This document shows positions 24,997-25,857 of a DNA stretch of 64,000 nt, one piece after another (positions within the stretch are counted from its first letter, which is position 1; each line of letters starts with the position of its first letter). The position numbers and the translations under genes were made by a program. Source of the stretch: Dictyostelium discoideum (lineage: Eukaryota); NCBI GenBank assembly GCA_000004695.1, contig CM000151.3:1-64000 (forward strand), written 5' to 3'. The notes under the pieces were generated by a model. The model was given only the letters and a program-made list of their open reading frames with translations, was not told the DNA's origin and ran no database searches.

Positions 24997-25857
24997 TTGG
25001 ATTATTTCGATGTTATTAAACATCCGATGGATTTAGGTACTATCAAGGGTGAATTGGATAATAATGGATATTCAACTATTAAAGATTTTACAGCAGATGT
25101 TAGATTAATGTTTGAAAATGCATTAACTTATAATGCAGATTCATCACCAATTTGGAAACATGCTAAAACATTACTCTACTTTCATGTTTTTACAAAATTT
25201 CCCAAATGAAAAACCTCCGACCTATAAACCACCACCACCTACCCAACTCCAATCCCAACACAACAACAACAATCAACTTCTTCAACATCAACACCAACCT
25301 CTGAAAAAAAGAGAAAACATGATGAACATGTTAAAGTTAAAGAAGATACAAATTCTGCTCAACCAACTCTTCTTCGTCTTCAAATCATACAAATAGTGAA
25401 AATGCTTCATCTTCATCTTCATCTTCATCTTCATCTTCATCTTCATCTTCATCTTCATCTTCATCTTCATCTTCATCTTCATCTTCATCTTCATCTTCAT
25501 CTTCATCTTCATCTTCATCTTCATCTTCATCTTCAAAACAATCAAATAATTAATAATAATAGTAATAATAATAATAATAATAATAATAATAATAATAATA
25601 ATAATAATAATAATAATAATAATAATAATAATAATAATAATAATAATAATAATAATAATAATAGTAATTCAACAACAAATTCATCATCATCATCATCATC
25701 ATCATCATCATCATCATCATCATCATCATCATCAACTACTACAACACAAAAGAAATACTCTGATGAAGAAAGAAGGAATTTAATGGAAAGAATTAATGAA
25801 TTAGCTCCTGATTATGTTCAAGAGGTTTTAAATATTATCGATCCAAATGCAAGCTGA
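24997..25857 (+). pseudogene. fragmented BET-family-like gene: bromodomain C-terminal half (frame 1), [14 protein letters not shown] segment (frame 2), (CTTCAT)n then poly-N/poly-S and an ET-like domain (frame 3); no 5' half present
   Basis: [60 protein letters not shown] is the second half of a bromodomain. YSDEERRNLMERINELAPDYVQEVLNIIDP resembles the BET ET-domain core. The three segments lie in different frames with shifts at A-runs. The sequence directly upstream is an A21 run and repeat-arm DNA, not coding. Confidence 0.5.
25405..25535 (+). repeat. (CTTCAT)~22 hexamer array (reads LH, SS or FI repeats depending on frame)
   Basis: Direct read. Confidence 0.9.

Follow-up and report, generated by a model that had tools for sequence, protein, structure and literature searches.

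The locus described here is the 6-kb gap between atg7 (20345-22738, minus strand) and an SH3-PH gene (start at 28810, plus strand) on Dictyostelium discoideum chromosome 2. It lies within a window of 64,000 nucleotides (the whole stretch of DNA that was analysed, positions 1 to 64,000 of CM000151.3), to which all coordinates refer unless stated otherwise. Several of its ORFs are identical to proteins of AX4, for example DDB_G0271354. The same locus was compared in an independent D. discoideum assembly (GCA_054883475.1, hereafter L004) over window positions 22000-29500, and was inspected in two lineages that are 88-89% identical to the window (L001 and L005), in D. cf. discoideum (L006, where atg7 and the SH3-PH gene are only 1.4 kb apart), in D. 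firmibasis (L002), and in D. dimigraforme (L003). In every D. discoideum-like lineage examined (L001, L004, and L006), the atg7 gene is inverted relative to both of the genes beside it. It shares one strand with the SH3-PH gene in D. firmibasis, where the two are direct neighbours, and in another dictyostelid (P0042) the two are fused in a single gene model. The start of the window is transposon-rich DNA, as judged from a 417-aa ORF at 356-1609 (minus strand), which is ORF1 of a TRE3-type element with identical copies behind tRNA genes on several chromosomes, and from a 560-aa C2H2-type ORF at 2782-4464 (minus strand; DDB_G0294296), which is a member of a multi-copy family. A direct duplication of atg7, a candidate prompted by two ORFs of 560 aa, was rejected, the two ORFs being unrelated. 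No tRNA gene was detected by ARAGORN in the 64 kb.

Within the gap, a U6 snRNA gene is located at 23990-24096 on the plus strand (Rfam RF00026, 64.5 bits against a gathering score of 44). The copy in L004 scored 69.7 bits, and an orthologous U6 gene is present in L001, a divergent D. discoideum-like lineage. A DUSE-like motif, ACCCATAA, is found at 23923-23930, approximately 60 nt upstream of U6, and the DUSE is known to sit about 60 nt upstream of ncRNA genes (PMC7919456). At position 24043 inside U6, the window reads GATTACCATGG and L004 reads GATTAGCATGG. The AGC triad of U6 is invariant and catalytic; it is ACC in the window and intact in both L004 and L001, so that the ACC is either an error in the reference or a strain variant that would inactivate this copy. 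The U6 gene is followed on the same strand by a T-rich run (24101-24174, with pure T63 at 24112-24174) that comprises terminator and spacer, and that is 35 T shorter in L004. This run is ancestral and is no transposable element (TE) tail, because L001 has a similar T-rich run after its U6 gene; a candidate reading in which T63 would be the poly(A) tail of an element in the opposite orientation was rejected on the same grounds. L001 carries two convergent U6 copies at 5134-5556 of its own sequence, one full-length and the other without its 5′ third. They are separated by ~190 nt, in which a TRE3-like zinc-knuckle fragment (GHLFFNC...) is found. This arrangement suggests repeated retroelement activity behind the U6 gene.

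A decayed, 5′-truncated fragment of a TRE3-like non-LTR retrotransposon occupies 24209-24972 on the plus strand. It contains the C-terminus of ORF2 (equivalents of amino acids 757-1059), a stop codon at 24920-24922, and a 50-nt 3′UTR, and is followed by its poly(A) tail, A21 (24973-24993), which abuts the first codon of a BET-like sequence (see below). Translations of the fragment generated no match in Pfam, and its identity was established by tblastx and tblastn against reference TRE copies from five other genomic places (L007-L011). The last ~300 codons of the RVT_1 ORF2 (1059 aa) align collinearly with 24213-24922 at 40-61% amino acid identity (E 4e-28 and 3e-23), and both the CCHC knuckle CMLCSENLGEDPYGHRLFKC and a C-terminal ISFD.FI motif are part of the match. 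The fragment has accumulated ~8 in-frame stops and several frameshifts. Intact TRE3 copies end like the fragment, with the 3′UTR followed by A19-A25. The reference copies each follow a tRNA gene on the same strand at a distance of 53-95 nt, and their target site duplications (TSDs) of 8-11 bp abut the poly(A) tail; a position behind tRNA genes is TRE3 behaviour by published definition (PMC5006619). The end of U6 (24096) and the TSD of the fragment (24197) are 100 nt apart (65 nt in L004), again on the same strand, which is the geometry expected relative to a Pol III gene; the target is nevertheless U6 and no tRNA gene. The fragment therefore resembles TRE3 in its ORF2 C-terminal homology, zinc knuckle, short 3′UTR, poly(A) tail, short TSD, and proximity to a Pol III gene, and differs from TRE3 in lying behind a U6 snRNA gene instead of a tRNA gene, in having its 3′ TSD parted from its A-tail by the BET piece, and in being only 67% identical to the reference TRE3 copies at the nucleotide level. 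Because of this last value, the fragment was regarded as belonging to a sister family or as an old copy.

Immediately after A21, window positions 24994-25960 (plus strand) code for a bromodomain reduced to its C-terminal two thirds, followed by a low-complexity linker and an ET domain. Proteins of the BET family (BRD2/3/4/T, yeast Bdf1/2, plant GTE) contain one or more bromodomains and then an ET domain. A BET-like coding remnant with both domains, spread over three frames, had been recognised in a previous sequence-only reading of this DNA, and the Pfam searches bear this out. The first segment (24994-25188) generated a hit on the bromodomain (PF00439) with 67.8 bits (E 8.4e-19), at window positions 25000-25167 in the frame of 24994, covering profile positions 28-83 of 84 only; the αZ helix and the ZA loop (profile positions 1-27) are missing. 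The best PDB match of this piece was BRD4 BD2 (45 bits, vs 34 bits for BD1), as expected for a bromodomain N-terminal to an ET domain. Against PF17035 (cut-off 24.5 bits), the first ET half alone (25756-25851) scored 31.4 bits, and the two halves joined (25756-25851 plus 25853-25927) matched positions 2-63 of the 64 in the profile with 47.4 bits (E 2.1e-12); a phmmer search of the ET piece against PDB gave no match. Both the bromodomain and the ET matches are far beyond chance, and the ET domain lies C-terminal to the bromodomain, as in the BET family. The linker at 25189-25755 contains, by translation and codon usage, a KKRK-rich stretch, (CTTCAT)22 encoding poly-Ser, (AAT)41 encoding poly-Asn, and (TCA)18. 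The remnant had previously been taken to end at 25857; the second half of the ET domain, in another frame, and the true stop codon (TAA, 25958-25960), which follows a short tail, lie beyond that point, and the ET domain in its two frames with tail and stop thus extends over 25756-25960. The central loop of the ET domain is ~5 residues short at the frame break. The AT-rich stretch that follows (25961-26081, plus strand, 12% G+C) is a putative 3′UTR of the BET transcript. It contains AATAAA at 26063-26068, 6 nt before an A7 (26075-26081), which may be the remnant of a poly(A) tail; this A7 is short, in AT-rich DNA where A-runs are common. The remnant is similar to BET family members in its BD2-like bromodomain, conserved YN motif, basic linker stretch (KKRK), and ET domain close to the C-terminus, all in the right order, and is different from them in the loss of the first third of the bromodomain, the absence of a start codon, the five frame breaks, and the short ET loop. 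The BET sequence is accordingly a relic of the family and not a working member.

The original frame of each part of the remnant was assigned from stop-codon maps and third-position A/T codon usage. Six segments (24994-25188, 25190-25240, 25243-25365, 25368-25550, 25552-25851, and 25853-25960) were delimited in three frames. Four of the five breaks between them are in the linker (about 25189, 25241, 25366, and 25551). There is no single continuous ORF with a start codon, and the minimum for any open path through the remnant is three frame changes. A location within a homopolymer can be considered for the first break alone (T5 at 25187-25191); the other four coincide with short CCA/CCT, TCT, and AAT repeats, except for the break in the ET loop, where the DNA is free of repeats. 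The proposal that the frame shifts fall at homopolymer runs is therefore possible for the first break and wrong for the four others, and single-base corrections in A/T runs do not yield one open frame, as at least three corrections are needed, of which only one would be in a homopolymer. The suggestion that (CTTCAT)22 would more naturally read poly-Ser was confirmed, the array at 25405-25535 being perfect and poly-Ser being in the frame backed by codon usage and by the flanks.

An intact functional gene, its frame broken only by sequencing errors and its 5′ exons lying elsewhere, would also account for coding sequence of this quality: the segments contain no in-frame stop in their correct frames, the domains are very well conserved, and the automatic annotation of L004 places a 234-aa hypothetical protein on 25027-25857 (L004 6920-7750). 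L004 differs from the window at only seven positions in 7.5 kb (homopolymer lengths and two substitutions), all outside 24994-25960. Every frame break, including those in the interval 25190-25410 for which a second sequence had been called for, is thus reproduced in an independent assembly, which refutes base-calling errors as their cause; the frameshifts of the BET remnant are real. The sole GT-AG intron that gives 234 aa (25186-25311, 126 nt) is coding-like and not AT-rich, and apparently serves to skip two stops; the model also reads (CTTCAT)22 as (LH)n, and it had no exact match in the protein collection. This gene model is regarded as a prediction artefact, and users of the annotation should be aware that one automatic pipeline calls a hypothetical protein on the relic. 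As any open path also requires the frame changes described above, and as an upstream bromodomain exon is absent from the window, an intact gene is very improbable, and the BET sequence is, with high confidence, a non-functional pseudogene. In 22000-29500, the window and L004 also disagree by 1-3 bases at four further homopolymers.

The missing first half of the bromodomain was searched for in the whole 64 kb by tblastn with BRD4 BD1 and BD2, and only the known piece was matched. Pfam searches of the three plus-strand frames of 22739-~24110, from atg7 to the T-run, detected no first half either, and the remaining 24110-24993 (T-run and TRE fragment) was covered by the tblastn search. The absence of this half upstream, as claimed in the sequence-only reading, was thereby corroborated. 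The A-run and repeat DNA that the reading had placed upstream are present, and can now be specified as the A21 tail of the TRE3-like fragment and the fragment itself. BET sequence near atg7 was absent by tblastn in all five related lineages at the locus (L001, L005, L006, L002, and L003), indicating a lineage-specific arrival and not the decay of a resident gene. Word-index protein searches with the reconstruction, which included the D. discoideum proteome, revealed no near-identical protein and one weak metagenomic match; the word index is insensitive here, and the result excludes near-identical proteins only. An intact paralogue in the proteome, as envisaged before, was thus not recovered at this level of similarity. 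In an exhaustive representative search with the 70-aa bromodomain piece, the best 150 matches contained only multi-bromodomain proteins. The best hits in a metagenome scan showed 62-64% identity over the bromodomain, or ~30% over both domains, and are distant relatives. A literature search for a description of a Dictyostelium BET protein gave nothing useful. As no near-identical intact gene was found, the BET piece might be all that is left of a second BET paralogue.

A 12-nt direct repeat flanks the TRE fragment and the BET piece together. The 12-mer TATGATGCTRTT occurs four times in the 64-kb window, vs 0.05 copies expected, and only at the edges of inserts; four copies were reached in 0 of 100 shuffles. 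The 5′ copy, TATGATGCTGTT (24197-24208, plus strand), lies just 5′ of the TRE fragment and is unlike the TRE3 sequence at the equivalent position, and the 3′ copy, TATGATGCTATT (26082-26093, plus strand), lies just after A7 and is identical to the 5′ copy at 11 of 12 positions. The remaining two copies are at the matching places in an inverted copy of the unit (see below). The order of the unit is thus TSD, 3′ end of TRE, A21, 3′ part of BET, putative 3′UTR, A7, TSD. Because the 12-mer brackets everything from the TRE fragment to A7 as one unit, the BET piece is inside a TSD-bounded retro-insertion, and the flanking TSD corresponds to that of a LINE-mediated processed pseudogene, here placed around the TRE and BET parts together. 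The BET piece has the orientation of the TRE, is truncated in 5′ at an arbitrary point, and has a 3′ end that resembles a polyadenylation site. Taken together, these features indicate that the BET piece appears to have been carried in by retroposition, and not to have been broken in place.

This order of elements also bears on the possibility that a TE insertion or a rearrangement cut a BET gene resident at this locus, with the loss of its 5′ half. Such an event is consistent with the start of the BET sequence exactly at the TE tail, and with the rearranged state of the region, which contains an inverted duplication (see below) and an atg7 gene inverted relative to D. firmibasis. If a TE had split a resident gene, its second TSD would be sought directly after its A-tail; the sequence there is unlike the 5′ TSD of the TRE, and the matching repeat comes only after the BET piece and A7. 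Moreover, the DNA upstream of the TRE is a U6 gene with an ortholog in L001 and contains no BET exons, the five related lineages are devoid of BET sequence at the locus, and the first half of the bromodomain is found nowhere in the 64 kb. A cut resident gene is therefore improbable. Of the earlier proposal that the pseudogene was created by the flanking TE or duplication event, the pseudogene status and the link to the TE hold, and the cutting of a resident gene does not.

Capture at the DNA level, in which break repair or segmental duplication placed a genomic BET piece in or at the TRE A-tail with no RNA stage, is somewhat less improbable than the cutting of a resident gene, and is still unlikely. 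The intron status of the parent leaves room for a genomic source, and other DNA-level rearrangements have occurred at the locus. A random DNA fragment is, however, not expected to end at a poly(A) site, and the BET fragment ends with a putative 3′UTR, AATAAA, and a short A-run just before the TSD, in the orientation of the TRE, which is a signature of reverse transcription. We consider an RNA-mediated origin of the BET piece rather probable, the likeliest kind of pseudogene being a 5′-truncated processed or chimeric retro-pseudogene.

A second, inverted copy of the unit was detected at 27427-27920 (minus strand) by comparison with 23937-26153. It contains the upstream flank of U6 with the first 8 nt of U6, the T-run, a TSD (27775-27764), the part of the TRE encoding amino acids 757-842, A9G, a second TSD (27519-27508), and the downstream flank, and lacks the body of U6 (bases 9-107), the 3′ part of the TRE, and the BET piece. 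The arms of the inverted duplication are ~9% diverged, with 25 mismatches and one gap in 270 nt. A further, perfect inverted repeat of 31 nt is present at 27035-27065 and 27361-27331. The region 26095-27485 was also considered as a TIR transposon and rejected, because both of its ends derive from the downstream flank that was copied in the fold-back duplication, and its central part (27035-27154) is intergenic DNA of ancestral origin, present also in L006. As the inverted copy lacks the BET piece, an RNA-mediated origin requires the assumption of either a deletion in the inverted copy or a later insertion in the copy described here.

The age of the BET part was assessed from its stop codons. 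The reconstructed 319 codons contain no in-frame stop, and the probability of this outcome under simulated neutral substitution was 0.50 at 1% divergence, 0.25 at 2%, 0.13 at 3%, 0.04 at 5%, and 0.002 at 10%. Set against the ~8 stops in the TRE fragment and the ~9% divergence of the arms, the BET part shows far less decay and is therefore young or a late arrival. This mildly favours an insertion of BET that postdates the duplication and took place within the A-tail or at its end. Alternatively, the TRE RNA may already have been defective when it was copied.

On an RNA-mediated origin, a TRE3-type element in the ancestry of AX4 would have integrated ~100 nt downstream of U6 and in the orientation of that gene, by target-primed reverse transcription as TRE3 elements do behind tRNA genes, and the 3′ part of a BET-family mRNA, from mid-bromodomain to the poly(A) site, would have been copied into the same insertion. 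Three routes can be envisaged. The reverse transcriptase may have begun on the tail of the BET mRNA and then switched template to the TRE RNA; a later priming event may have taken place in or at the end of the TRE A-tail; or a read-through TRE transcript may have carried downstream BET sequence (3′ transduction). Whichever route was taken, the copy would have been dead on arrival, as it has no αZ helix, ZA loop, start codon, or promoter.

LINE-made chimeras with one pair of TSDs are documented in fungi and mammals (PMC2104539; PMC4476161). The unit described here resembles LINE processed pseudogenes, chimeric retrogenes, and L1-type 3′ transductions in that two RNA-derived parts stand head to tail on one strand, each ending in an A-run, with one pair of 12-nt direct repeats around the whole. 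From the list of features given for template-switch chimeras (PMC2104539), a direct join in the same orientation, a 5′-truncated 3′ part, and short flanking direct repeats are all found. The full-length cellular RNA that forms the 5′ part of the classical chimeras is replaced here by the truncated end of a TRE3-like ORF2, which argues against a retro-copy of that type (PMC2104539). The order is likewise different, since the TE comes first and the mRNA second, whereas a full-length small RNA lies 5′ of the LINE in the classical case. The host is also different, as processed pseudogenes are reported to be absent from D. discoideum. Siol et al. described the genome as free of processed pseudogenes and explained this by the template specificity of TRE5-A, the proteins of which need their own 3′UTR (PMC3159450); the statement concerns TRE5-A and not TRE3. 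This reported absence is a prior against reading the BET piece as a retro-copy (PMC3159450). The shortness of A7, in DNA with common A-runs, counts in the same direction, as does the failure of the protein searches to recover a parent gene with which introns and the 3′ end of homology could be compared. We infer the RNA intermediate, and any choice among the three routes, from the anatomy of the unit.

In view of these points, the more specific proposal, that TRE3-type machinery of D. discoideum produced the unit as a genuine retro-pseudogene, processed or chimeric, is put forward tentatively, as a possibility that falls somewhat short of probable. If true, TRE3 enzymes can mobilise cellular mRNA, against the published view that the genome has no such copies, and TRE3 targeting reaches the U6 snRNA gene, which is transcribed by Pol III and encodes no tRNA; both points are relevant to the choice of RNA template and target by the tRNA-gene-targeted retroelements of Dictyostelium, which, if the proposal is confirmed, occasionally retro-copy host transcripts. 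A broken BET gene is ordinary in itself and function is unlikely, so that the interest of the locus is in the anatomy of the retro-copy. The five frame-breaking indels would have been acquired after insertion, mostly in the simple-sequence linker. In mutation accumulation experiments with D. discoideum, the indel rate was twice the substitution rate (PMC7466956), and the indel-heavy decay of the BET sequence, which is rich in simple repeats, is in line with these data.
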